Shown piece by piece: positions 3,054-53,966 of a stretch of DNA of 64,000 bases (positions within the stretch are counted from its first letter, which is position 1; every line of letters begins with the position of its first letter). Position numbers and translations under genes: made by a program. Source of the DNA: an uncultured Candidatus Saccharibacteria bacterium (GTDB lineage: Bacteria > Patescibacteriota > Minisyncoccia > UBA6257 > Colwellbacteraceae); the NCBI GenBank assembly GCA_964643135.1, contig CAZXPC010000003.1, positions 6,152 through 70,151 on the forward strand. Reading direction: 5' to 3'. The notes under the pieces were generated by a model. The model searched no databases. It saw nothing but the letters and a program-made list of their open reading frames with translations, and was not told the DNA's origin.

Positions 3054-4712
3054 ATGCCCATTGATGATTCTGATGTTACGCTAAAACTTAAACGCATTCA
3101 GCTTGAGGCGGAAGAACGCGAAGCCGAAAGGATAGCGGCTTCATACAACCTGCCCTATCTTTCAAGCGGTTCTTTGTCGCCTCAGCTAGAGGCTTTGCGG
3201 ATGGTTTCCGAAACAGAGGCGCGGAACGCCAAAGCGGCGGCTATAAAGTTACAAAAAAAGGAATTGGTTTTGGTTGTAGAAAATCCCAAACTAGCGGCCA
3301 CGGCTCAATTGATTGAACGGCTCCGCAATTCCGGCTATTTGATTAATTTATATGCAGTTTCTTTTTCAACTCTCAAGAGGCTTTGGGAGCATTACAGCGA
3401 GATTATTGAAACGCCGCACGAAATCACTTCGGAGATCGAAATAAGCAGTTCTGATTTTGCGAAAATCAACGGAGATATCAAAAACCTTGATAGTATCAGG
3501 GGGTACTGCGCGAAATTCGCTGGACTTTCCACGACCGATCTTCTTTCATTTATTTTCGGCGCCGCTATTGTTATCGGCGCGTCTGATGTTCACTTCGAGG
3601 CTGAGGAATCTTTGGTCAGGCTGAGGCTGCGAGTCGACGGAATTCTAAACGATATCTGCGAATTTCCGCTTGAGAATTATAAACAAGTTTTAAATCGAAT
3701 AAAATTATTGGCCGGTCTAAAGATCAACATTACCGACAGTCCGCAAGACGGCCGATTTACGATTAAGGTTGGCAAAACAGAAGTCGAAATACGCGCGGCT
3801 ATAAGCCCGTCTGAATTCGGTGAAGTTATTGTCATGAGAATTTTGAACCCGAATGAGATTGTTTTGAGTTTGGGAGAATTAGGACTCCGAAAAGACGACG
3901 AAGACGTTGCTCTCCGCGAAATTAAAAAACCAAATGGCATGATATTGGTTACCGGACCAACCGGCAGCGGTAAAACGACTACGCTCTACGCCTTTTTGAA
4001 GAAAGTTTCTAATCCGGAAATAAAAGTGATTACAATCGAAGATCCGATTGAGTATCGATTGGTTGGCATTGAGCAAACTCAAGTTGAGGCTAAGAGTGGC
4101 TACACTTTTGCGTCCGGCCTGCGATCTATTCTAAGGCAAGATCCGGACGTTATCTTAGTCGGTGAAATCAGGGATTTCGAAACGGCTGAAATTGCTATGA
4201 ATGCGTCGCTAACCGGGCACCTCGTTTTCTCAACTTTACACACCAATAATTCAGTAGGTGCTATTCCGAGGCTGATTGATCTGGGGATCAAGCCTTCGAT
4301 TATCGGCCCGGCGCTGACACTCATAATCGCGCAAAGGTTGGTGCGGAAAATTTGCCCATTTTGCCGCAAGCAATCCGAGACGACTCGGGATTTGAGCGCT
4401 AAAATAGCGAAGCTTAAAAAGACTTTGCCGACCAAGGTTCAGAATTATAACCCCACTGATGTGGTTTACGACGCGGTTGGCTGTGACAAGTGCCACGGCG
4501 GGTATAAGGGGCGAATTGGCATTTACGAGCTTTTGGAATTAACCGGAGAATACGAATCATTAATAAATAAAGATGCCACTGAATATTCAATTCGTGAATT
4601 TGCCTTGAAAAAAGGATTGGTTGAAATGCAAAAAGATGGAATTTTGAAAGTTTTGGCGGGGATGACAACGTTTGAAGAGGTGGAGAAGGCCACCGGTCCT
4701 CTCGAGTGGTAG
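3054..4712 (+). CDS. pilB: Type IV pilus assembly / type II secretion ATPase (PilB/GspE family)
   Basis: Walker A is VTGPTGSGKTTTLYAF. Asp-box and His-box regions are present. The C-terminus has a tetracysteine zinc motif (CPFC...CDKC). Length is 552 aa. Confidence 0.9.
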   Translation: MPIDDSDVTLKLKRIQLEAEEREAERIAASYNLPYLSSGSLSPQLEALRMVSETEARNAKAAAIKLQKKELVLVVENPKLAATAQLIERLRNSGYLINLYAVSFSTLKRLWEHYSEIIETPHEITSEIEISSSDFAKINGDIKNLDSIRGYCAKFAGLSTTDLLSFIFGAAIVIGASDVHFEAEESLVRLRLRVDGILNDICEFPLENYKQVLNRIKLLAGLKINITDSPQDGRFTIKVGKTEVEIRAAISPSEFGEVIVMRILNPNEIVLSLGELGLRKDDEDVALREIKKPNGMILVTGPTGSGKTTTLYAFLKKVSNPEIKVITIEDPIEYRLVGIEQTQVEAKSGYTFASGLRSILRQDPDVILVGEIRDFETAEIAMNASLTGHLVFSTLHTNNSVGAIPRLIDLGIKPSIIGPALTLIIAQRLVRKICPFCRKQSETTRDLSAKIAKLKKTLPTKVQNYNPTDVVYDAVGCDKCHGGYKGRIGIYELLELTGEYESLINKDATEYSIREFALKKGLVEMQKDGILKVLAGMTTFEEVEKATGPLEW

Positions 4713-5960: not shown

Positions 5961-7406
5961 CTATTTAATCCCATGCGCCTGCGATTCCCGGTAACCCCCT
6001 TCGGTGATTCTTATAAATTCTGCATTTTTTTGGAAAGTATCGATATCCTTAGCGCCTAAGTAACTCATGCTCGATCGAAAGCCGGCGAGCGTGTCTTTTA
6101 AAATAACGGCAACGTCGCCTTTGAATGGCACTTTACCCGACTTTCCTTCCGGGGCGCGGTAAAGACCATCAGAAGTTTTGTGTTCTTTGCGGAGTTTGTC
6201 TTCGAAGCTCTCGCGTGAGGCTCCACCGCGATAAATTTTATAAGCTTGGCCGGAATCCATTATATACTCGCCTGGTGATTCTTTGGTGCCGGAGATAATA
6301 CTGCCAACCATAACTGTGTTAGCGCCGGCAGCGATAGCTTTGGCTAAGTCTCCTGAGTTCCTTATGCCGCCGTCTCCTATGATTGGTACACCATATTTTT
6401 TAGCGGCGGCGGCGCAGAGTTGAATGGCGGTTAGCTGCGGCACGCCGACGCCGGTTACGACCCTAGTGATGCAAGTTGCCCCCGGGCCGATGCCAATCTT
6501 AACGCAATCAGCACCGGCTTTGATCAAATCAACTGTGCCCTGTGGCGTAGCGACATTGCCGGCCACCAGTTCAACGTGCTTAAGGTTTTTTCTAATAGTT
6601 TTCAGAGCATTAATGGCTCGTTCATTGTGCCCGTGCGCCACGTCCATGACTAGAACGTCGCAGCCGGCGTCAACAAGCAGTCCGGCGCGTTCTAAATAGT
6701 CTTCGTTGACGCCCACTGCCGCGCCAACTAGCAAGTGCCCGCTTTTGTCCTTGGCCGCATCGGGATAGAGCGTCTTTTTAACAATGTCGGTGGCGGTAAT
6801 TAGGCCTTTTAAGATACCCTTTTTGTCGACTAAGGGCAGTTTCTCAATCTTATTTCTGCGGAGCACTAGTTTGGCCTCATCTATCTTGATGCCCATTGGT
6901 GCAGTCACAACTTTCTTAGTCATGACGTCACCTATCTTTTTATTCAGATCAGTTTCAAAGCTCACATCGCGGTGAGTTATAATACCGATTACTCGTTTTT
7001 TATCATCGACAACGATTAGGCCCGAGACATTATTCTTGTCAGTAAATTTTTTAACGTCGAGGAGAGTTTTGTCGCTCGTAATTGTGTGCGGATTTTCGAT
7101 GATTACTCCTTCAGACCGCTTAACTTTCTCAACTTCGCGAGCCTGATCAATCTTATCCATAAAACGATGGATCACGCCCAGCCCTCCCATGTGTGCAAAA
7201 GCTTTAGCCATTTCGGACTCAGTCACTGTATCCATGTTCGCACTAACGAGCGGAATATTCAGATCAATATTGCGGCTAAATTTAGTTTTGGTTGAGGCAT
7301 CGCGGCGGGAATAGACATCAGATCGGCGCGGAACCAAAAGAACGTCATCAAATGTTAAGAATTCTTTTGATGAGTTTATGTTGCGATCTGAGAAGTAGTT
7401 CGACAT
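5961..7406 (-). CDS. guaB: Inosine-5'-monophosphate dehydrogenase
   Basis: [34 protein letters not shown] marks the catalytic Cys loop. There is a CBS-pair insertion. Length is 481 aa. Confidence 0.95.
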
Positions 7407-25799: not shown

Positions 25800-25870
25800 G
25801 GGGGTATAGTTTAGTGGTAAAACTTTCGTCTTATACACGAATAAGCTTGGTTCGATTCCAAGTACCCCCA
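25800..25870 (+). tRNA. tRNA-Ile (anticodon TAT, AUA-decoding)
   Basis: Hand-folded. Acceptor GGGGGTA/TACCCCC. Anticodon stem TTCGT/ACGAA, loop CTTATAC. T-arm CTTGG-TTCGATT-CCAAG. Confidence 0.7.
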
Positions 25871-25892
25871 CTGCTCGCATCAAATCCTAATT

Positions 25893-34702: not shown

Positions 34703-35119
34703 GTGATGTTAAACTTTCTAATCAATATTGCTCACGCTTTTGATCAGCCCACCGGGAGCATAGTTACTTGCGGCCCGGCTGATGCGTCGGGTCATTATCC
34801 CAACGGCAATTACACCGGGCCTTGTGACGCCGGTGCTTTTTGGGGGCTCGTTAATACACTTATAAATTACGCAATTTGGATCGGTATTGTGGCGGTTGGC
34901 TTGTCGGTAGTATTCGCCGGGGTGATGTTTTTGACTTCCGCCGGCTCGGGCGAGAAGACCAGCGCTGGGAAACGCGCCGTAACAGCCGCGGTTGTCGGCC
35001 TAGTTATAACTTTGACCGCTTGGATAATTGTTAATACAATTATATCGTTCCTGTTGCCGAACTGTACTGGGCATTGGAATATATTCAATAATGGGACCAG
35101 CAGCCTAACATGCTCTTAA
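34703..35119 (+). CDS. TrbC/VirB2-type T4SS pilin-like protein, paralog 1
   Basis: Two hydrophobic helices separated by the short polar loop TSAGSGEKTSAGKR. Cys-containing N- and C-terminal tails. Same architecture as the next three ORFs. Confidence 0.6.
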   Translation: MMLNFLINIAHAFDQPTGSIVTCGPADASGHYPNGNYTGPCDAGAFWGLVNTLINYAIWIGIVAVGLSVVFAGVMFLTSAGSGEKTSAGKRAVTAAVVGLVITLTAWIIVNTIISFLLPNCTGHWNIFNNGTSSLTCS

Positions 35120-35541
35120 AATTAATAAATAAAACTAGATATCTTTGGCTGGTCTTAGTCGGCTGGGCAGTCCTGCCGGCAGCCTTGGCCGCGGGGACAA
35201 CTTTTTGCGACCCCATCGCGGGCTGCAACGGAACTTCCACGACTATTCCGGATCTTTTAGTCAAGATGGCCAGCTACCTGACTATTCTGGCTATTCCGGT
35301 TTTGGCGATCATGATTTTGTACGGAGCTTTTACCATCATGACTTCCGAAGGCAACAGCGAGCATTATAAAAAGGGGCAGAGGATTATTGTTTACGCTATC
35401 GTTGGTTTCGTGATCATCGCGATCGGCGGCGGAATAGGATATATCATTAATGATATTTTGACCGGCGGGCCGGCGGCTAACCCTTGCAGCCAATTCGTAG
35501 TCGGATCGCCGCAATATAATAGCTGCATAGTGGCTCATTAA
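35110..35541 (+). CDS. TrbC/VirB2-type T4SS pilin-like protein, paralog 2
   Basis: Signal peptide ending AALAAG. Helix-loop(TSEGNSEHYKKGQR)-helix core. Cys pairs at both ends. Confidence 0.6.
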   Translation: MLLKLINKTRYLWLVLVGWAVLPAALAAGTTFCDPIAGCNGTSTTIPDLLVKMASYLTILAIPVLAIMILYGAFTIMTSEGNSEHYKKGQRIIVYAIVGFVIIAIGGGIGYIINDILTGGPAANPCSQFVVGSPQYNSCIVAH

Positions 35542-35559
35542 GGAATCAAAGCTAAACTT

Positions 35560-35925
35560 ATGAAAAAATATTTAATTATTCTGAGTCTGCTGGCCGCACT
35601 TCTGATTGGTTTCGCCCCCAGCGCCCTAGCGGCTGACTGCGAGTATCCGGCGACCCAGGTTATTAACGGACAAACGGTGCCGTGTCCCATCAGGCATCTT
35701 TCTGGCTTCGTAGATTTTCTGACCACTATTTTCAATATCTTTTTCGCGCTAATGATTATTGCCGCCTCTTTCACTTTTGTTTATGCGGCCTTTCTCTACA
35801 TCACTTCCGAAGGCATGATGGAAGAAATCAGGAAGGTTAAAAGAATGCTGATCTACGCTATGATCGCCCTCGTTATTGCCGTTTTCGCCTGGGGGTTGCC
35901 GAGAGTTATTATAAGCTTTCTCTAG
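35560..35925 (+). CDS. TrbC/VirB2-type T4SS pilin-like protein, paralog 3
   Basis: Signal peptide ...PSALAADC. Helix-loop(TSEGMMEEIRKVKR)-helix. C-terminus WGLPRVIISFL. Confidence 0.65.
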   Translation: MKKYLIILSLLAALLIGFAPSALAADCEYPATQVINGQTVPCPIRHLSGFVDFLTTIFNIFFALMIIAASFTFVYAAFLYITSEGMMEEIRKVKRMLIYAMIALVIAVFAWGLPRVIISFL

Positions 35926-36050
35926 GTTGTCCTATATCTATTTCTTTACGGCCCAAGTGACTTATGCTAATATTTCAAGCAATGGAAAGGTCGAGTTTTA
36001 AAGATTATTTATCCGGACTTTTTAGATTAAAACAGATTAAAAAAGATAAA

Positions 36051-36413
36051 ATGAAGAAATTAATACTTTTGTCAGTTTTAGTGTTGGGACTTTTGGCGGT
36101 TGCGGCTGCACCTAGCGCTTTGGCGGCGGTTGGCTGTCCTTTGCCTCCTTGCGGTTCTGACGTCAGCCCTACGACTGGACCAGCTTTTACCGACTTGATC
36201 CAGACTATTTTTAACGTAGTTTTCGGCATCTTGGTAATAGTGGCAGCATTCTTTTTGCTTTTTGCAGCTTTTGAATACATCACTGCTCAGGGCGAACAGG
36301 AGAAAATCCACAAGGCTAAGAACACAATTGTCTACGCGATTGTCGCTCTAGTTGTGGCTATTCTAGCCTGGGGTCTTCCGAGAGTTGTGCTCAGCTTCTT
36401 CGGCGTTCACTAA
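36051..36413 (+). CDS. TrbC/VirB2-type T4SS pilin-like protein, paralog 4
   Basis: Signal peptide ...PSALAAVGC. Helix-loop(TAQGEQEKIHKAKN)-helix. C-terminus WGLPRVVLSFF, near-identical to paralog 3. The ORF-track start at 35964 is an upstream extension. Confidence 0.65.
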   Translation: MKKLILLSVLVLGLLAVAAAPSALAAVGCPLPPCGSDVSPTTGPAFTDLIQTIFNVVFGILVIVAAFFLLFAAFEYITAQGEQEKIHKAKNTIVYAIVALVVAILAWGLPRVVLSFFGVH

Positions 36414-36523: not shown

Positions 36524-37286
36524 TACGATCGTGAACATAGTGTATCTTCTCGAGTTTCTGGCTAATTTATTTTGAGCGGCTGTTTTTCACTGCAGATTCC
36601 TTGCCTGCCGGTTCTTCATTTTCTATTTACTATATTTATATATTATCTTCACGATCGTGAAGATAATATATGTGTATGAGGGGAGATCTAAAGAATAAAA
36701 TTCTAGAAAATATTTTGGAGACGGCCATTTCGCCCGCAGAACTATTTGAGGCTGTGATCAGGGCCGGCTATGGTGCATCTGTGCGTGGAATTGATTGGCA
36801 GCTGGAGAAGGTTAGAGCTAGAAGGCAAGATGTTTTAAATATCTTGGCCAAGAAGAAAAGTTTCTACAATACTCTCCAGAGGCTAAAGAGGGATGGTTTG
36901 ATTGAAAGATCGGGCAAGGGCTGGATAGCGACTAAATTAGGTCGAGGGATCTTTACGGTCTCTGATAACAGGCCTTCCCGATCGGCATATCCATCGACAG
37001 AAAAGACCAGCTATACAACGATTATCATATTCGATGTGCCAGAAACGCATCGATACAAGCGCGATTGGCTGAGAGATAGCCTTAAAAATATGGGTTTCAA
37101 GATGGTTCAAAAGAGTGTTTGGTCGGCTCAAGTTAAGATTCCACGCGCTTTTATAGATGATTTAGAAAGTTTTGCTCTTATTGACTGCGTCGATATATTT
37201 CAGGCGACCAAGCTTGGCTCGCTGGCTAAATCCTAAAAAAACTTAAATGATTAAGATCAATATATATTATTCACGATCGTGAGAAA
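36524..37286. promoter_or_regulatory. Three copies of the palindromic operator TTCACGATCGTGAA bracketing the gene 36670-37236
   Basis: Sites at about 36526-36539 and about 37272-37285, plus the extended perfect 22-bp palindrome TATCTTCACGATCGTGAAGATA at 36645-36666. The extended copy overlaps a GATAAT -10-like hexamer 4 bp before the ATG. Confidence 0.7.
36670..37236 (+). CDS. Winged-helix (PaaX-N-like) DNA-binding domain fused to a C-terminal Cas2-like domain; putative autoregulator
   Basis: N-terminal half (..SFYNTLQRLKRDGLIERSGKGWIATKLGRG) looks like a wHTH. C-terminal half (TIIIFDVPETHRYKRDWLRDSLKNMGFKMVQKSVWSAQVKIPRAFIDDLESFALIDCVDIF) follows the Cas2 core pattern [YF]D[VI]..R.R..L...G.R.Q.SV[FW]...D.V.I[FY]. 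Palindromic sites flank the gene. Confidence 0.6.
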   Translation: MCMRGDLKNKILENILETAISPAELFEAVIRAGYGASVRGIDWQLEKVRARRQDVLNILAKKKSFYNTLQRLKRDGLIERSGKGWIATKLGRGIFTVSDNRPSRSAYPSTEKTSYTTIIIFDVPETHRYKRDWLRDSLKNMGFKMVQKSVWSAQVKIPRAFIDDLESFALIDCVDIFQATKLGSLAKS

Positions 37287-37374
37287 ATATATCAGAGTGG
37301 CGGGATTAGCTTTCCTTGAAGAGAAAATATTCTGTTGCTAAAGAGTCCCTAGATTAGTATTATGGGTTGGTCAT

Positions 37375-37455
37375 GCTGAGGTGGTGAAATGGCATACACG
37401 CGGAGCTTAGGACTCCGTGCCGTAAGGCGTGCGGGTTCAAGTCCCGCCCTCAGCA
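37375..37455 (+). tRNA. tRNA-Leu (anticodon TAG), class II with a long variable arm
   Basis: Acceptor GCTGAGG/CCTCAGC. 3-bp D stem. Anticodon stem CGGAG/CTCCG, loop CTTAGGA. Variable arm TGCCGTAAGGCGT. T-arm GCGGG-TTCAAGT-CCCGC. Confidence 0.85.
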
Positions 37456-37556
37456 CAAGGACTTGAACGGGAAAGGGGTCGGGAAAACGGGAGTTTTCCC
37501 GTGGCGGAAGTATTGAAACCGCTGGGTTTCAAGGAGCGAATGCTTAATGAGCGACG

Positions 37557-37581
37557 TTCAATTGCCCGCCCTCAGCACATA
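37557..37581 (+). repeat. Direct repeat of the 3' 25 nt of tRNA-Leu (23/25 identical), 100 bp downstream of the intact gene. att-like remnant
   Basis: TTCAATTGCCCGCCCTCAGCACA here versus TTCAAGTCCCGCCCTCAGCACA at 37433-37457. A strong 9-bp hairpin (CGGGAAAAC-GGGA-GTTTTCCCG) lies between them. Confidence 0.7.
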
Positions 37582-38031
37582 GGATTGGTCTGATATTGAA
37601 TTTTTCGGGGTATGTGGTATGTTTTATAAATCCGCCTTGTTGGCTGGAGCCAACTCGCATCACAGGCGGCCGGAGAGAAGAGAATGATCGGTACCGACGA
37701 AATGGGCTTGGGGTTCGCGCAAGAACCCACGACGACGCAGCCGGCGAATGAACAGCTCACGCCAGCGGGGAGTTCCCACTCAAGCATCGTCACGGACCGA
37801 GACAGACTTCGATCGTTTTCCGTCAGCCAAGGACGGCGGGTTCGGGAACGAGCTCGAAGGATCTAGGACCGCAAGGGAACATCGCGGCATTGATTAGGTG
37901 AGTCGACTGGCAAGAGCCGGTCTTCCAACTATCGTGCCGCCCTTTTTTTTCAAAAAAAAGAAGCGAAGAGTTGAGGATGGTAGAATCCCATCATAAATCT
38001 CGTTCGCTTGAGGCTTCGCTTCACGCTGCTT

Positions 38032-39045
38032 CTAGGCCCGCGTCGGGTCGCAGTTCACGACCTTGCCCGCTACGCTCGAGTAGAGGTAGAAGTCCGGGCC
38101 GACGTTGTCGAGGTGCGCGTCCGAAGACACGAACATCCACCCTGACTGGACCCAGGAGTAACCCAGGTCGTTCGGGTGTGCCGCGACTGCGCTGTCGTAG
38201 TCGGCTTTCGACTGGTAGAAGCGCGCGACTCCGGCTCCCTGGGCATTGCACGTGAGTCTGGTGACTCCCGTGTCGTGCCCGGTGAAGCGGAACGGTCCGC
38301 TCAACCCTTGCGCCAGCGTGATGACGTCGGCGCCGTAGTTGAGGTAGGTTCCTTTCACTGGGGTGGCCGGGGCTCCGCTGCCGGATGTCGTCACGTTGTT
38401 GATCTTCTCGATCGTGATGTGCCAGTTGGTCGTCCAGGGGTTGTAGTCCCGGAAGGCCATATGGTCAGCGTTCGGGTAGTTCGAGGCGTTCTTGAAGCCC
38501 GAACAGTCCGAGAAGATCATTCCCGAGAGAGCATTCGCTTCCCCAGGAGCGTTGTCGAGCGCGCAGCTGCCCAGAGGAACTGCCGTGGTCAGGTTGACCG
38601 CGAGTCCGCCGAAGCTGCCGATCGAAGCCACGACGAAGTGTTCTCCGAGCTTGCGAACGCTGACTTGGTTCGGAGCGGTGTAGTTCGTTGCGTTCCACCA
38701 CTGGTCTAGATTTGTCACCTTCGCGTCCTTGAAGTCCGCGATGGTGCCGATGCCGCCATCGAGCGTCCACGATTCCGTTGCCGCAGCTGGAGGGCTGGGC
38801 GCAGAATCCGCGGGGTTGTCGTTCGCGTGGTTCGCCGCGACAGCTGCCGCGATGTCCTCCGCGCTTGCCGGGGGAGTCGTCGGGATCTGGTGGAGGAGCT
38901 CGTTGTTCTCCTTGCCGATATCGATCAGCTTGTTGGCCTGGTCTGCGGTCATGCCGTCGGATTCCTTCTTTGCCGCACATCCCGCGAGGGAAATGGTCAG
39001 GAATAGCGTCGCCACCAGGGCGATCATCTTGGGGTTGGGCTTCAT
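38032..39045 (-). CDS. Lipoprotein (lipobox LAGC), hypothetical, high-GC (about 62%) gene
   Basis: N-terminus MKPNPKMIALVATLFLTISLAGC gives a signal peptide plus lipobox Cys. No recognisable domain. Several long antisense shadow ORFs overlap it. Confidence 0.65.
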   Translation of the reverse strand: MKPNPKMIALVATLFLTISLAGCAAKKESDGMTADQANKLIDIGKENNELLHQIPTTPPASAEDIAAAVAANHANDNPADSAPSPPAAATESWTLDGGIGTIADFKDAKVTNLDQWWNATNYTAPNQVSVRKLGEHFVVASIGSFGGLAVNLTTAVPLGSCALDNAPGEANALSGMIFSDCSGFKNASNYPNADHMAFRDYNPWTTNWHITIEKINNVTTSGSGAPATPVKGTYLNYGADVITLAQGLSGPFRFTGHDTGVTRLTCNAQGAGVARFYQSKADYDSAVAAHPNDLGYSWVQSGWMFVSSDAHLDNVGPDFYLYSSVAGKVVNCDPTRA

Positions 39046-39257
39046 TTCAAGTGTCCTCCCGTTATCAAGGTGCTGGCTTAACAGAGTCTATACTCCCGTT
39101 AGGGAGCTAGACTAGCTAGCACCTCAAACGAGTGTGGGACTATGTAAACATACATACGCTATTCTTGTCAAGTCCCCAGGAAACTTAGTGGCCTTTATAG
39201 GCCTTGACAAGACATTGGAGATCTGTTAATCTAAACCGTCAAAATATAAATAAGACT

Positions 39258-41387
39258 ATGATGATAAACCCAAAAAACAAGCAGACCGCCGGTTTCGGAG
39301 CGATGCAAGTCGTAATTGTAGTCGGCGTGGTGGCCGTTCTGGCCTTGTTATTCTTCGGTTTGCCGGGCGGAGTTAAGGATTTCTTCGCTAAATTAAAGGG
39401 TGGGACCGCTTCGATCTCCAGCTTTGGTGATTTTCAGAAAGACGCCAACAATAATATCAGCATCGACAGCGTGGCGGACACGATGGTTAAGGATTTGATG
39501 TCGGTTCAGACTATGGCTAAGGCGGAAACTGGGGACAAGAAAGACGGCATCTGTTTCAAGAATCCGGCTGCCGAAACCGATTTCTATAATATAGTTTCTA
39601 ACATCTCCGGCACCGACGCTTGCGATAGCGCGGCTTCGATTGTCAATGTCGTTTCTTTGCCGAGCGGGATCAGTATTGTAGATCCAGCCACTGGCAGCAA
39701 TAAATCTATTGTTTTCCAGAAAGACGGCACCTCTGTTGCCTCAACCGATCAAACTATTAAAATTGCGTCTTCAACTGAAACTCGAATTGTGACGGTTACG
39801 CCGTCCGGCAACGCAACTTTCAGCGTCGGCGCTCCTAGCACGGCTTCAGCCGGGGCTTCATCGGGATCGGGCGGGACCACAACTATCATCAGGACAGTAA
39901 CCGCGGATAATACCGGCCAGATTAATGCTCTTAGCAATGTGGCGAACGGCTTGGCCAATGTTTTGGGTTCGATTAGGACCCTGCAGAATCAAAACACTGT
40001 TGTCACTGTCCCGGTTCCTGTTCAGGTCCCTGTGCCGGTCAATGTTACTTCGGGCGCTCCTTCTCAGCCTTCGAATCTTTACGCTCAAGGAAGCTACGGC
40101 TATATTGCATTGAATTGGACGGTTTCAGCCGGCGCTATCTCGACCTATAAAATTTATCGCAGCCAATATCCCGGCCAGGAGTCGTTCTTAGCCTCGGTTG
40201 GAGCGATTAATTATTACGCCGATTACAGCGTGGCCGCCGGTTCGACCTACTACTACAAAGTTACGGCCGTCAATACAGCAGGGCAGGAGAGTCCGCTTTC
40301 AAACGAAGCGTACTCGGCCGCTTATGTTCAGAGTCCTGTTACTTATTACACACCCGTTCCCGTTCCGGCTCCGGTTCCGCAGCAGCCTCAGATTTTTCAA
40401 CCATCGGTGCCGACTATTGTTTCGGCTGCCTATTACCCGGGCAACGGGGTTGTCTTGAACTGGCTCGCTCCACAGTCTAACGGTAATTCTTATATCGTCG
40501 GCTACAGGGTTTATCGCAATATTTCGGTGGTAAATTCCAGCTTGATTTACGATTCAACTTCTCAGAGCACAACCTACACCGATTCAAGCCTGGCGCCGAA
40601 CACTAACTATTGCTACCAGATTAGCGCCAAAAATCAGCAGTACGAAAGCCCACGGTCAGCCGCGCAATGTGTTTATACTTATGTAGCTCAGACCCCATCA
40701 CCTACTCCTAGCCCGAGCCCAGCTCCTCAGACCCCGACTTACTACTCTCCTTATCCGTCATCGACGCCTCCTGCGACTTACTACTACACTCCCGGAACTT
40801 CTACGAACCAGACGCCTACTTACTATTCTCCGACTTCGTACTCGAACCAGCCGGCTACTTATTACACTACTAGCGGCTCTTCAACACCGGCGGCCACTTA
40901 CTACACAACCGCTCCGAACGGAACTCAAGCTGCTACTTACTATACGACTAGCGGTTCGGGTACTCCGTCGGCAACCTACTACACGACTTCTTCGACATCG
41001 GGTACGCCATTAGGAACCTATTACGCAACGTCAGGATCTACTAGCGGCACTCCATCGGCCACTTACTACACAACTAGTGGTTCTTCAACCCAGGCAGGCA
41101 CGTATTACGGTACCCAAACTTCGACCACTCCAGGAGCGACTTATTACACAACCAGCGGCAGCACCAGCTCATCGCCGGCCACTTATTACTCAACTGGCTC
41201 TACCGCTACTCCATCAGCAACTTATTATTCGACAGCTAGCGGTTCGGGTACGCCGAGCGCTACTTATTACACTACTAGCGGCTCTTCAACGCCGGCTGGA
41301 ACTTATTACACAACCGCTCCGAGCGGAACTCAAGCCGCGACTTATTACAGTTCTTCATCAACTCCATCGGCGACTTACTACCCCTAA
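39258..41387 (+). CDS. Large secreted/surface protein with two fibronectin type III-like domains and a C-terminal Tyr/Thr/Ser-rich tandem-repeat region (ATYYTTSGSSTP-like, about 20 units)
   Basis: N-terminus KQTAGFGAMQVVIVVGVVAVLALLFFGL is a signal anchor, possibly pilin-like. FN3-like blocks (..LNWTVSAG..YKIYRS..YYYKVTAVNTAGQES.. and ..LNWLAPQSNG..YRVYRN..YCYQISAKN..). Imperfect tandem repeats at about 40740-41390. The TTGACA-17-TAATCT promoter is at 39204-39232. The ORF-track start at 39204 is an upstream TTG extension. Confidence 0.7.
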   Translation: MMINPKNKQTAGFGAMQVVIVVGVVAVLALLFFGLPGGVKDFFAKLKGGTASISSFGDFQKDANNNISIDSVADTMVKDLMSVQTMAKAETGDKKDGICFKNPAAETDFYNIVSNISGTDACDSAASIVNVVSLPSGISIVDPATGSNKSIVFQKDGTSVASTDQTIKIASSTETRIVTVTPSGNATFSVGAPSTASAGASSGSGGTTTIIRTVTADNTGQINALSNVANGLANVLGSIRTLQNQNTVVTVPVPVQVPVPVNVTSGAPSQPSNLYAQGSYGYIALNWTVSAGAISTYKIYRSQYPGQESFLASVGAINYYADYSVAAGSTYYYKVTAVNTAGQESPLSNEAYSAAYVQSPVTYYTPVPVPAPVPQQPQIFQPSVPTIVSAAYYPGNGVVLNWLAPQSNGNSYIVGYRVYRNISVVNSSLIYDSTSQSTTYTDSSLAPNTNYCYQISAKNQQYESPRSAAQCVYTYVAQTPSPTPSPSPAPQTPTYYSPYPSSTPPATYYYTPGTSTNQTPTYYSPTSYSNQPATYYTTSGSSTPAATYYTTAPNGTQAATYYTTSGSGTPSATYYTTSSTSGTPLGTYYATSGSTSGTPSATYYTTSGSSTQAGTYYGTQTSTTPGATYYTTSGSTSSSPATYYSTGSTATPSATYYSTASGSGTPSATYYTTSGSSTPAGTYYTTAPSGTQAATYYSSSSTPSATYYP

Positions 41388-41389
41388 TT

Positions 41390-42331
41390 TTATTTTGGCT
41401 GACTTCTCCTTTTGGAATGAAAAGCTGAATGAACCTCCTTCAGCTCTTTATTCGTGACATGGGTGTAAATCTGGGTGGTCGAAACATTGCTGTGGCCCAA
41501 GAGTTCTTGAACTGATCTCAAGTCTGCGCCATTCATCAGCAAGTCGGTGCCGAATTGGTGCCGCAAAGTGTGAGGTGTTACTTTCTTAGGGATGCCGGCC
41601 GCTTTGGCGTAGTGGGCGATTAGGCGCTCAATACTGCGCGTGGTGAGCCGGCCGATCGGTTTTGGGTCGGCGGCTTTGGTGAAGCTAATAAACAAGGCTT
41701 CTTCGGCGTCGAAACGTTTGTCGAGGAAGGCTTTAATTGATTTTTTGGCCTCGTCGGAGAGGAATACTACTCGCAATTTGTCGCCCTTGCCTCGGATGGT
41801 CAATTCGCCGCGCTCGAAATTGTTGTGTCGGTCGAGACTGGCCAATTCGGAGACGCGCAAGCCGGTCGCGAAAAGAGTTTCTAGGATAGCGCGGTCACGT
41901 AAAACTCTAATATCTGAGCCTTTGGGCGCGGCCAAGAGGCGTTGCAGATCAGTATTATCCATAATTTGAATCTGGCGGGCCGGGATTTTTGGCAGTTCAA
42001 TTTTGTCGGGGGAGACAACCTTATAATCGCGTTTCATTAGGAACTTAAGAAAATTGCGGAGAATAATGATGTAGTACGATTGGGTGATTTTCTTGATCGG
42101 GGGAGTGGAGCTGGCGAGTTTGATACGAAATTCGCGGATAGCTTCCTCGGTAATATCGGAGATATTTTTAACGCCGGATGTCTCGGCGAACTTCCTTAAA
42201 TAACGCTCATAATTAGCCCTGGTGCGGGGGGATTTGTTTTTTTCAATCTCTAAATAGTCGAGATATTGCTTGATCAACTTCTGAACTTCAGTCATATTAG
42301 CTGGATTATACCATTCCCCGTTATGCGACAC
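41390..42331 (-). CDS. xerC: Tyrosine site-specific recombinase (XerC/XerD-like)
   Basis: N-terminal SAM-like core-binding domain. C-terminal catalytic HTLRHQFGTDLLMNGADLRSVQELLGHSNVSTTQIYTHV (R..H..R..H/Y signature). Length is 313 aa. Confidence 0.85.
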   Translation of the reverse strand: MSHNGEWYNPANMTEVQKLIKQYLDYLEIEKNKSPRTRANYERYLRKFAETSGVKNISDITEEAIREFRIKLASSTPPIKKITQSYYIIILRNFLKFLMKRDYKVVSPDKIELPKIPARQIQIMDNTDLQRLLAAPKGSDIRVLRDRAILETLFATGLRVSELASLDRHNNFERGELTIRGKGDKLRVVFLSDEAKKSIKAFLDKRFDAEEALFISFTKAADPKPIGRLTTRSIERLIAHYAKAAGIPKKVTPHTLRHQFGTDLLMNGADLRSVQELLGHSNVSTTQIYTHVTNKELKEVHSAFHSKRRSQPK

Positions 42332-42378
42332 AATGCGTTTGACTTTCCGGAAATTTTGGGATAAGATTCAGCCTACAT

Positions 42379-42645
42379 ATGTTAACCACCAGACAGAAGA
42401 AATTAGTTATAAAAGAGCACCAAACCCACGAAAAGGACAGCGGTTCGGCCGCCGTCCAGATCGGTTTGATCTCAAAAAAGATAGATGAGCTGGCTAGCCA
42501 CCTTAAGAAGCACGCTAAGGACAACCACTCGCGCCGGGGCCTTATTAACATGGTCTCAAAGCGCCGGAAACTTTTGACTTATTTGCAGGACAGCTCACCG
42601 CGCAGCTATAACTCGATTACGAAGAAGCTCGGCTTAAAGAAATAA
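42379..42645 (+). CDS. rpsO: 30S ribosomal protein S15
   Basis: GSAAVQIGLISKKIDELASHLKKHAKDNHSRRGL is the S15 signature. It sits upstream of pnp, the classic synteny. Confidence 0.9.
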   Translation: MLTTRQKKLVIKEHQTHEKDSGSAAVQIGLISKKIDELASHLKKHAKDNHSRRGLINMVSKRRKLLTYLQDSSPRSYNSITKKLGLKK

Positions 42646-52557: not shown

Positions 52558-52629
52558 GGTGCCTATAGCTCAATGGTAGAGCGCCTCCCTGTGGAGGAGG
52601 ATACACGGGTTCGATCCCCGTTAGGCACC
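52558..52629 (+). tRNA. tRNA-His (anticodon GTG) with an encoded G-1
   Basis: Extra 5' G before acceptor GTGCCTA/TAGGCAC. Discriminator C. Anticodon stem CCTCC/GGAGG, loop CTGTGGA. T-arm ACGGG-TTCGATC-CCCGT. Confidence 0.85.
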
Positions 52630-52660
52630 CAATTATAAACTGTCGGCCGAATTAAAAAGA

Positions 52661-52689
52661 TTGACAAACATAATCACCCTCTCTAGAGT
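52661..52689 (+). promoter_or_regulatory. TTGACA-17-TAGAGT promoter-like element upstream of the Orc1/Cdc6 gene
   Basis: TTGACA at 52661-52666, a 17-nt spacer, then TAGAGT at 52684-52689. Same architecture as the promoters at 29291 and 39204. Confidence 0.5.
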
Positions 52690-52772
52690 GGGAATGTTGG
52701 GGTGACAACAACTTGACGACCAAATCCAAACCGAAAGAGGGAATCTTCGATTCGCTCTTGAGGAGCGAGCCG

Positions 52773-53966
52773 ATGTTCAGAAACAAGGAAGTCCTGCGGT
52801 CTAGCTACATGCCTGACGAGCTGCCGCACCGGACGACCCAGATCAATCAGCTCGCGGCGATCCTCGTTGGGGCGCTCAAGGGTGAAACGCCCTCGAACGT
52901 CCTTATCTACGGGCAGTCGGGAACTGGGAAAACCGCGGTGGCGCGCTTCGTGGGCAACGAGCTGCAGAAGACGGGGAAGGAGAAGGACCAGACGGTCTTT
53001 TTCGTCTATATCAACTGCCAGCTCGTCGACACGCAGTATCGAGTCCTCACGCACATCGCGAACCATTTCATCGAGAACTGGGACGACCGCATCCCGTTCA
53101 CGGGCTGGCCGACGGACGAGGTCTACAACAAGCTGAAGCAGAAGATCGACGAGAAGGGAGGCGCCTGCGTCATCGTCTTGGACGAAATCGACAAACTCGT
53201 TTCCAAGGCCGGCGACGACATCCTCTACGCACTCTTGTCGATCAACAGCGACCTGAAGAGCGCGAAGGTGTCCGTGATCGGCATCTCGAACGACCTGAAG
53301 TTCACTGAGCTTCTCGACCCGCGCGTGAAGTCGCGCCTGGGCGAGGAGGAGGTGATCTTCCCTTCGTACGACGCCGTGGAGCTCCAGGACATCATGAAAC
53401 AGCGCGCAGAGATGGCGTTTCAGGGAGGTTCGCTGGAAGACAGCGTCATGCCTCTTTGCGCCGTTTTGGCCGCACAGGAGCATGGCGATGCTCGTCGAGC
53501 GCTGGACCTTCTTCGCGTCGCCGGCGAATTGGCGGAGCGGGAGGGCCAGAAGTCAGTGAGTGAGAAGTACGTGCGGAAGGCTCAGAACAAGATCGAGGGC
53601 GACCGCGTGACCGAGGTCGTGCGCACGCTTCCCACGCAGAGCAAGATCGTGCTTCTCAGTGCGATCTTCGGCGAAGAATCGGGAACGAAGAGTCTCACGA
53701 CCGGCGAGGTGTACGACACGTACCGCGAACTTTGTGAGGAAGCCCGCCAGGACATCCTCACGCAGCGCCGCGTTACGGACCTCATCTCGGAACTCGACAT
53801 GCTCGGAATCTTCCGGGCGCGGGTTGTCTCCAAGGGGCGTTACGGACGCACCAAGGAGATCGAGCTGGCCATTCCGGTTGAAGAGACCAAGGCTGTGCTC
53901 TGCGAGGATCCTGTCGTGGGGCCAGTCATGGGGTTCCGCCCAAAGAAGCAATCGAGGCTCTTCTAG
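52773..53966 (+). CDS. Orc1/Cdc6-family AAA+ ATPase (archaeal/eukaryotic-type replication initiator homolog), high-GC islet
   Basis: N-terminal MFRNKEVLRSSYMPDELPHRTTQINQL follows the Orc1/Cdc6 IF.N.E.L...Y.P..LPHR..Q pattern. Walker A LIYGQSGTGKTAVA. Walker B VIVLDEIDKL. Sensor-1 ISN. C-terminal winged helix. About 60% GC against about 40-45% in the flanks. An alternative TTG start at 52713 (ORF-track start) would add 20 aa. Confidence 0.8.
   Translation: MFRNKEVLRSSYMPDELPHRTTQINQLAAILVGALKGETPSNVLIYGQSGTGKTAVARFVGNELQKTGKEKDQTVFFVYINCQLVDTQYRVLTHIANHFIENWDDRIPFTGWPTDEVYNKLKQKIDEKGGACVIVLDEIDKLVSKAGDDILYALLSINSDLKSAKVSVIGISNDLKFTELLDPRVKSRLGEEEVIFPSYDAVELQDIMKQRAEMAFQGGSLEDSVMPLCAVLAAQEHGDARRALDLLRVAGELAEREGQKSVSEKYVRKAQNKIEGDRVTEVVRTLPTQSKIVLLSAIFGEESGTKSLTTGEVYDTYRELCEEARQDILTQRRVTDLISELDMLGIFRARVVSKGRYGRTKEIELAIPVEETKAVLCEDPVVGPVMGFRPKKQSRLF

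Follow-up and report, generated by a model that had tools for sequence, protein, structure and literature searches.

Does the cargo beside a tRNA-Leu gene in a Patescibacteria genome (Paceibacteria, Colwellbacteria-like) form a genomic islet, delivered by the recombinase whose gene lies at its far end? In the window, that is, the whole 64-kb stretch of DNA that was analysed, an intact tRNA-Leu(UAG) gene is followed by a repeat of its own 3' end, a GC-rich gene for a predicted lipoprotein, a gene for a surface protein with FN3 domains and a gene for a tyrosine recombinase. The sequence-only reading of this stretch took these features for one 3.8-kb islet inserted into the tRNA gene. On balance, we think that the region is instead a tRNA-Leu(UAG)/xer junction conserved in Paceibacteria, which probably serves as a slot for variable genes and in which three layers of different age, not one island, lie together. 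One layer would be a resident Xer recombinase, inherited vertically. The second would be a surface module, composed of a GspH-like pilin with FN3 domains and Tyr repeats and of a small secreted or lipid-anchored protein, which would have been inherited in the sub-lineage of the window and its relatives L095, L096 and L098 while evolving fast. The third, the duplication of the tRNA 3' end, would belong to a small element, denoted here as E, and would be the scar of an old mini-insertion independent of the cargo.

The recombinase gene (41390-42331, minus strand) was classified using domain and family models, structure alignments and synteny. Its product has a SAM-like N-terminal domain and a catalytic domain (Pfam Phage_int_SAM_1 and Phage_integrase) and matches the XerA model NF040815 over its full length with 230.6 bits, passing the cutoff of 220, while the equivalog models for XerD (235 bits, cutoff 330) and XerC (232 bits, cutoff 335) are also matched at full length but not passed. 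Aligned over its whole length with XerD (1A0P) and XerA (4A8E and 5HXY), it retains the RVSEL, GKGxK, HxLRH, LLGHS and IYTH motifs, and its catalytic residues R-K-H-R-H-Y are covered in the 1A0P alignment. No xer paralogue was found within the window. A scan of one genome per species together with Joint Genome Institute (JGI) metagenomes yielded 79 Xer relatives, mostly 52-67% identical to the Xer of the window and 67% at best, and these were Patescibacteria save a few outliers (Colwell-, Wolfe-, Jorgensen- and Liptonbacteria and other Paceibacteria). When the loci with at least 300 nt of downstream flank were inspected, tRNA-Leu(tag) was located downstream of xer in 30 of 63 (26 within 3 kb), almost always in convergent orientation and across gaps ranging from 11 bp to 9.1 kb. 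On the other side, rpsO was within 1 kb of xer in 26 of the 65 loci with enough upstream flank, and the order rpsO-NYN-pnp was common, as in the window, among metagenome-assembled genomes of several candidate orders. Relatives in which the gap between tRNA-Leu and xer is only 11-230 bp still carry xer. Because the same context recurs in dozens of relatives, the recombinase is best regarded as resident and not as an islet integrase; it is probably the single housekeeping Xer of the lineage, inherited vertically with rpsO-NYN-pnp. The sequence-only reading had allowed for both roles. The housekeeping role agrees with the XerA cutoff and with the context conserved in many genera, and the placement of xer before rpsO-pnp was confirmed, with NYN between the two; the integrase role is contradicted by the Xer type of the protein and by neighbours that are the same with or without cargo.

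The closest relatives (Xer about 79-89% identical) were reached only through FN3 homologues in Logan assemblies, with Xer identities to the window of 88% in L095 and 79% in L096 (L097 is the same sequence as L096). The window, L095, L096 and L098 share one gene order: type IV secretion system (T4SS) pilins, a small gene, tRNA-Leu(tag), a minus-strand gene, the FN3 gene, xer and rpsO. The FN3 proteins are homologous over their full length, with 46, 40 and 37% identity in L095, L096 and L098, respectively. In the more distant L005, an FN3-like gene is present in the gap without the partner gene. Distant relatives are without cargo, and the closest ones (Xer 79-88%) have both the FN3 gene and a GC-rich gene in the slot. 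The FN3 gene itself has a native composition, with a GC content of 0.505 and a third-codon-position GC content (GC3) of 0.511 compared with a genome mean of 0.53 ± 0.06 (z = -0.3); its GC content stems from codon position 2.

The anomalous composition is confined to the partner. The slot gene of the window (38032-39045, minus strand), delimited by its open reading frame (ORF), composition and database searches, encodes an orphan lipoprotein of 337 aa, and the LAGC lipobox noted earlier is indeed there: MKPNPKMIALVATLFLTISLAGC satisfies the pattern L-[AS]-[GA]-C, from which motif the protein is a predicted lipoprotein. With a GC content of 0.62 and a GC3 of 0.817 against 0.533 ± 0.064 for 54 ORFs (z = +4.4), it is the only gene that stands out in the per-gene composition of the locus. 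The tract to which it belongs extends over about 1.4 kb (37640-39045, GC about 0.60), with background composition beyond. Its remaining part, the 3' flank of the lipoprotein gene (37640-38031, GC 0.56), contains no convincing ORF and no codon periodicity and stands where L095 and L096 have a small conserved ORF. As such, the high-GC segment proposed to span 3.8 kb shrinks to about 1.4 kb, given the native composition of the FN3 gene, and the GC content does not jump directly after the repeat, where an AT-rich spacer of 60 nt (37580-37639, GC 0.37) comes first.

The same anomaly was found in the relatives. The slot proteins of L095, L096 and L098 have 301, 413 and 410 aa and an N-terminal membrane anchor, and are encoded on the minus strand by genes with a GC content of 0.62-0.65 and GC3 values of 0.84, 0.85 and 0.85, in loci with an overall GC content of 0.45-0.50. 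Compared with 0.82 for the slot gene of the window and 0.84-0.85 for those of the relatives, the neighbouring genes have GC3 values of 0.36-0.57. The third-position make-up is near identical in the four slot genes (A.08-.11, C.49-.51, G.32-.36, T.07-.08). The encoded proteins have little else in common. While those of L096 and L098 are 61% identical and constitute a family of two members in all, BLASTP did not recognise either the window or the L095 protein as related to them, and hhalign of the window protein against the L096/L098 pair gave a weak match (E 0.013, 83 columns). Between L096 and L098, the synonymous sites of xer and of the FN3 gene are saturated (proportion of synonymous differences, pS, 0.78-0.81), and both slot genes have a GC3 of 0.85. 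Since this value is kept despite saturated flanking synonymous sites, the composition of the slot appears to be maintained or repeatedly re-imported. The GC anomaly is a conserved property of the slot in this sub-lineage. That relatives might carry the same genes with the same GC content at this site had been named beforehand as the finding that would speak against an islet; it is true of the FN3 orthologues and of the anomalous GC content but not of the slot protein, which is different or unrecognisable. A GC3 of about 0.82-0.85 would be kept either through exchange of divergent alleles with a GC-rich pool by way of the conserved flanks, or through locus-specific selection or biased gene conversion.

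A recent origin of the GC-rich segment also has to be considered. The 1.4-kb segment could be a horizontally gained 'moron' with its own promoter, acquired independently in each lineage from a GC-rich pool, which might be phage, plasmid or host organism, at a hotspot beside tRNA-Leu and E. A GC3 of 0.82 with z = +4.4 and sharp boundaries would be expected of such a gain, as would slot proteins that are mutually unrecognisable among the window, L095 and L096/L098 despite Xer identities of 79-88%; the shared third-position make-up of all four genes could reflect one pool, and a second GC3-rich gene of foreign type, an archaeal Orc1/Cdc6, stands beside tRNA-His in the window. However, the lipoprotein found only itself in 5.8e9 clusters and 1.84e9 representatives (word-indexed search and full phmmer), and the GC-rich segment had no blastn match in plasmids or phages, so that no donor homologue came to light in any of these collections. 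The L096/L098 orthologues, both at a GC3 of 0.85 with 61% amino acid identity and saturated flanks, favour maintenance over recent arrival, the orientation and the partner gene are the same every time, and no flanking repeats were found. We therefore regard the recent gain of the segment as unlikely, with a chance that is nonetheless appreciable. A gene-conversion array of the vls or pilS type was also considered and rejected, as the window contains no silent cassettes or paralogous lipoprotein fragments. An AlphaFold2 model of the lipoprotein, computed without an alignment, had a predicted local distance difference test (pLDDT) score of 36.

The repeat was examined next to the tRNA gene itself (37375-37456, plus strand), which is intact, has no encoded CCA and was called by ARAGORN and by the Rfam tRNA model at 56.3 bits. 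The exact 15-mer CCCGCCCTCAGCACA occurs twice on the plus strand. Copy 1 (37443-37457) spans the 3' strand of the T-stem, the 3' strand of the acceptor stem, the discriminator and 2 further nt, and copy 2 (37565-37579) begins 108 nt past the tRNA, on the cargo-proximal side. Two matches of this 15-mer occurred in 0 of 100 shuffles. GTTCAA is also common to both copies, upstream of the 15-mer. An att-like direct duplication of the tRNA 3' end, as the sequence-only reading had described it, is thus present. Its length was overstated: an identity of 23/25 is reached only when a 1-nt gap is admitted, while without gaps just the 15-mer matches, and a 23-mer of the tRNA end has no second ungapped match with up to 3 mismatches. 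The geometry was correctly judged to be wrong for an islet with this cargo, with copy 2 proximal, before the cargo, and no distal copy. A further copy of the tRNA 3' end, for which a search at the far end had been suggested, is missing from 37580-42400 even at 11/15 matches, and the edges of the cargo share no k-mer of at least 11 nt.

The 107 bp between the two copies (37458-37564, plus strand) constitute E, which was delimited by homologues in L004, L005 and L013 (L064 is the same contig as L013), by a variant in L003 and by covariation in its hairpins. E begins with an 'anti-T' segment, GGACTTGAAC (37459-37468), which repeats the tRNA T-loop/T-stem (37435-37444) perfectly in inverted orientation. 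It continues with the hairpin P2 (37480-37501), a segment resembling the 5' strand of the T-stem, the hairpin P3 (37513-37532), a conserved stretch GAGCGAATG..ATGAGCGAC (37536-37555) common to the window and L005, and the T-loop-like GTTCAA (37556-37561), before the direct copy of the tRNA-Leu 3' end. At the left end of E, sequence from the T-loop and the T-stem 3' strand of the genome's own tRNA is copied in inverted orientation in the window (10/10), in L004 (11 nt) and in L013 (13/14). Likewise, the right-hand direct copy matches the genome's own tRNA-Leu 3' end at 15/15 positions in the window, 16/16 in L004 and 18/19 in L013, and that of L005 matches a tRNA-Leu 3' remnant just past the intact gene. 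Because the acceptor sequences of the E-bearing genomes are unlike each other, every right-hand copy tracks the tRNA-Leu of its own genome. The sequence of P3 is wholly different in L005, where the hairpin is still formed. Six stem pairs in the hairpins were changed on both sides, compared with 2.0 ± 1.1 in shuffles, of which 1 in 500 reached this number, and the covariation of the stems is suggestive of a conserved structure.

E homologues are located downstream of tRNA-Leu in L004, L005 and L013, which represent three other genera, as well as in L003. In L004, E stops 4 nt from the xer stop codon, and in L013 it is 43 nt away from xer; neither locus has cargo. E was not found in L095 and L096, the closest relatives with the same kind of cargo, and a covariance model of E found no further sites in 787 kb of related loci and the window. 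Rfam recovered only the tRNA on 37250-37750 at E-values up to 10, without a family for E, and only tRNAs on the whole window at gathering thresholds. Of the pattern scans for E in IMG/VR, one returned 12 hits, all of them chance matches on inspection, and the others returned none. As E is present in the cargo-less L004 and L013 and missing from the cargo-bearing L095 and L096, it is separate from the cargo, and its features fit a small site-specific insertion at the tRNA 3' end better than a boundary of the cargo. Such an insertion would have taken place as by a tyrosine recombinase, leaving 15-bp direct repeats, with copy 1 as the element-borne end that now completes the tRNA and copy 2 as the displaced original. 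In L013, an acceptor stem completed by copy 2 would be Watson-Crick paired throughout, in contrast to the G.U pair of the working tRNA, which would suit an element-borne copy 1. In the window, copy 2 is probably the displaced original tRNA 3' end as well, considering that the sequence next to it (TAGGATTGG) is similar to what follows the tRNA in L096, which has no E.

With these observations, the proposal of one islet of about 3.8 kb, in which the lipoprotein and the FN3 adhesin were put into tRNA-Leu by the adjacent recombinase and the distal repeat was lost through decay or rearrangement, can be weighed. It would account for the intact tRNA, for the doubling of its 3' end and for the tyrosine recombinase gene at the opposite edge, and the gap between tRNA-Leu and xer does vary in size among relatives. 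Nevertheless, the recombinase is of the Xer type with unchanged neighbours in many genera, the repeat is proximal and has no distal counterpart, the FN3 gene is native in composition and orthologous in place (in at least four relatives), and the 2 nt between the stop codons of the FN3 gene and xer leave no space for an att site. E and the repeat are, furthermore, present in genomes without cargo. An islet bounded by repeat and recombinase is not supported. We consider this proposal very improbable.

Two other explanations concern E itself. In the first, E and copy 2 would be what is left of a partial tandem duplication of tRNA-Leu that took in everything from the variable arm to the 3' end, has decayed and carries an insertion in its T-loop; gene conversion would keep it similar to the tRNA. 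A second, degenerate tRNA of this kind had been named in the sequence-only reading as a finding that would speak against an att remnant. The segment past P2 mimics the 5' strand of the genome's own T-stem (GTGGCGG against GTGCGGG of the tRNA in the window, TGGGGGT against TGGGGGT in L005) and can base-pair with copy 2 in its T-stem 3' strand, and plain 3'-half remnants of tRNA-Leu follow directly past the intact gene in L005 and L023. However, a 5' acceptor strand, a D arm and an anticodon arm are all missing from E, which is not called as a tRNA by ARAGORN or Rfam; its left end is an inverted and not a direct copy of the T-loop; and its non-tRNA parts (GGGGTCGGGAAAAC and the P3 hairpin) are better kept across genera than the tRNA stems. 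We give the decayed duplicate a small chance. In the second explanation, E would act as a structured RNA or as a terminator module at the tRNA-Leu/xer junction, where the two genes converge, for example as a 3' trailer that steers maturation of tRNA-Leu by alternative pairing or as bidirectional terminators, and its function, not mobility, would keep the tRNA-like end. The hairpin stems do covary, when tRNA and E are folded together, the structure of minimum energy joins copy 2 to the 5' acceptor strand of the tRNA and the anti-T segment to its T-loop (z = -3.3), and E takes up the whole gap between the convergent genes in L004 and L013. On the other hand, a strong hairpin stands between tRNA and E in L004, L005 and L013, E is absent from most relatives, the closest included, E alone is not unusually stable (z = -1.8), and it has no Rfam match. 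This functional role seems slightly less probable still than the decayed duplicate. Two more candidates were set aside: a G-quadruplex motif in E (37469) is not kept in L005 or L013, and P2 and P3 seem unlikely to be dif-like sites, with E missing from most relatives.

Further irregularities were observed at tRNA genes of related genomes. Partial 3' halves of tRNA-Leu(tag), which start at the anticodon or variable arm and reach the 3' end, were found in L005 (12700-12790, minus strand) and L023 (4330-4412, minus strand), placed 8-10 nt after the intact tRNA-Leu and with acceptor sequences incompatible with the intact gene. These remnants point to repeated recombination or replacement at tRNA-Leu. 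In L063, a related metagenome contig, the last 14 nt of tRNA-Cys (2610-2682) are copied exactly 164 nt downstream. ARAGORN also identified a tRNA-Ile with the anticodon TAT (UAU) at 25800-25871 of the window and in L004, L014, L066 and L081, where it replaces the usual CAU/lysidine tRNA-Ile2.

Several points weigh against the account of a conserved junction with three layers. The likeness between the flank of copy 2 and that of the tRNA in L096 extends to only about 9 of 12 nt, and the lipoprotein of the window does not significantly resemble what the relatives encode in their slots, so that separate gains at one hotspot may have occurred. The closest relative found has an Xer identity of 88%, and the comparison of cargo is therefore one between genomes more distant than strains. 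The statistics for covariation in E are weak, resting on four genomes and one variant (five sequences). There is no recombinase besides Xer nearby, the action of Xer on tRNA ends is a candidate mechanism, and a circle of 122 bp is implausible as a recombination substrate. Lastly, in the Logan assembly of the sample of the window, SRR8931233, the locus is spread over three contigs (L001, 41261-49221; L002, 37503-40883; L003, 36642-37489). When L003 (SRR8931233_1438845) was compared with 36642-37554 of the window, 848 nt were identical, a stretch that includes tRNA-Leu and runs 32 nt into E. The contig departs from the window at 37490, inside the P2 loop, and continues with a variant P2 and P3 and then an AT-rich hairpin and sequence. 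The split at E may reflect a second haplotype or strain variant, or a branch or join in the assembly graph. Based on the synteny with L095 and L096 and on the exact match of copy 2 to its own tRNA, the order in the window is nonetheless argued to be real.

A bolder combination of the two anomalies was also weighed, in which E would be an undescribed mini-element without a recombinase, or else a mimic of a tRNA 3' end, and the GC3 of the slot would be actively held about 30 points above the genome in several species. E would then target tRNA-Leu(UAG) in Paceibacteria and could be mobilised in trans by the single Xer encoded nearby, perhaps via a folded single-stranded intermediate, given that the ends of E are inverted T-loop copies. 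The slot would be under a locus-specific compositional regime, for instance strong biased gene conversion at a recombination hotspot, tied to a rapid turnover of surface antigens in an episymbiont. The chance of this combination being right is, in our view, as small as that of the decayed tRNA duplicate.

The FN3 gene (39258-41387, plus strand) encodes a pilin-like surface protein with a prepilin-like leader (AG|FGAMQ), a GspH-like domain, two FN3 domains and 17 TYY repeats. Of the two FN3-like domains of the secreted protein recognised by the sequence-only reading, the second is well supported at 42 bits, while the first scores 22.4 bits and falls under the Pfam cutoff of 25; the count of about 20 Tyr-rich repeats comes down to 17. 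The GspH/FimT assignment (PF12019) is marginal, with 22.2 bits against a cutoff of 21 on the N-terminal 266 aa alone and 20.1 bits at full length. The leader AG|F[TGS]A[MV][HQ] and a hydrophobic segment are kept in four homologues, with Q or H and not E at position +5, and the N-methyl model did not match the protein. 'Candidate adhesin' seems a reasonable label for the protein. The stop codon of the FN3 gene is 2 nt from that of xer in the window, and this distance is 2-4 nt across the window, L096 and L098. The lipoprotein and FN3 genes diverge from a control region (39046-39257) and had been assigned a TTGACA promoter each; the divergence was confirmed, but both boxes are arms of one 13-nt inverted repeat (39163-39175 and 39200-39212).

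Other features of the region were recorded as well. In L096, inverted repeats of 34 and 27 nt (3526-3612 and 4011-4097; 94% and 89% complementary) flank about 400 bp. Within this segment lies the small ORF of L096 (3752-3889); this ORF, which L095 also has (6928-7065) and which is located between tRNA-Leu and the slot gene, encodes AEKFPEGFEVAIGPP with the motif AEKFPEGFEVAIGPPxGxFGxMTR and is absent from the window. Directly upstream of tRNA-Leu, the window carries a gene (36670-37236, plus strand) with a PaaX_M/Cas2-like domain, for which the NCBIfam cas2 model gave a partial match of 26.6 bits against 24.5; homologues by tRNA-Leu are also present in L016 and L031, and in L095 (6031-6666) and L096 (2746-3378) a LAGLIDADG_3 protein takes this position. 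Further upstream (34703-36413) is a tandem run of four genes for small membrane proteins, which belong to the T4SS_pilin family (PF18895) and are syntenic in most relatives. The second GC3-rich gene of the window (52713-53966, plus strand; GC 0.595, GC3 0.816) begins 83 nt past tRNA-His (52559-52630), beside a tRNA cluster, and encodes an archaeal-type Orc1/Cdc6 with Cdc6_C, Cdc6_lid and AAA domains, overlapped by a long antisense ORF (52683-53483). Its best tblastn matches, at about 37-39% identity, are orc1/cdc6 genes on haloarchaeal and methanogen plasmids, and it looks like an archaeal-derived gene within a Patescibacteria genome.

For annotation, the locus illustrates how a tRNA, its repeated 3' end, a tyrosine recombinase and a jump in GC content can look like an island even though the recombinase is the resident Xer and the repeat is part of a different unit. 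Patescibacteria rely on cell-surface contact with their hosts, and a slot that pairs a pilin-like FN3/Tyr-repeat protein with an orphan lipoprotein of fast turnover is a plausible determinant of host range or phage evasion. The persistence of the GC3 of the slot across species calls for an explanation. If E is mobile, it would be among the smallest site-specific units known to target tRNA genes and would hint at Xer acting outside dif in reduced genomes.

Among known systems, the casposons of Methanosarcina mazei are inserted at the 3' end of tRNA-Leu with a direct duplication of about 14-15 bp, which overlaps the last 4 bp of the tRNA, and have 31-bp terminal inverted repeats and a Cas1 gene (PMC6977970). 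E resembles them in its position at the tRNA-Leu 3' end and its short direct duplication. A casposon-like insertion was rejected, since the repeat is almost wholly inside the tRNA, E is free of genes, Cas1 included, and L004 has no terminal inverted repeats. Elements without a recombinase of their own are known as cis-mobilizable elements (CIMEs), as non-autonomous elements resembling miniature inverted-repeat transposable elements (MITEs) and as integrative mobile elements exploiting Xer (IMEX), which borrow Xer. Like CIMEs and IMEX, E is an att-flanked unit without its own recombinase beside a host Xer gene, but it is far smaller, its target is a tRNA end and not dif, and no autonomous partner was found.

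Single-recombinase Xer systems include XerA in archaea, XerS/difSL and XerH/difH. The recombinase of the window agrees with them in its full-length similarity to XerD and XerA, its catalytic motifs and its one conserved chromosomal context, while the conserved neighbour here is a tRNA gene and no dif site came to light in the 64 kb covered, in a lineage that has no dif consensus; a role of Xer in the insertion of E or in exchange at the slot is speculation. In genomic islands and prophages, tyrosine integrases insert at tRNA 3' ends and leave attL/attR direct repeats, and integration at tRNA ends was reportedly classified by Williams in 2002. E differs from such islands in that its repeats are only 107 bp apart, in its lack of genes and of an integrase and in its recurrence in four genera, with the cargo outside the repeats and the atypical composition restricted to 37640-39045. 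What they have in common is a repeat of 15-19 bp over the T-stem and acceptor 3' strands, an intact tRNA and, in L013, a displaced copy that looks original.

For the slot, a parallel is found in Pseudomonas aeruginosa, where a cassette of pilin and accessory genes lies between pilA and tRNA-Thr, and another in O-antigen clusters, whose GC content is persistently atypical. The slot described here differs in its GspH-like/FN3 fusion in an episymbiont lineage and in its orphan partners with GC3 raised by about 30 points, and strain exchange at it is conjectural. The resemblance lies in a pilin-like gene with a variable partner by a tRNA gene, in alleles that diverge between relatives and, as in the O-antigen clusters too, in an atypical composition of the partner that lasts across species.

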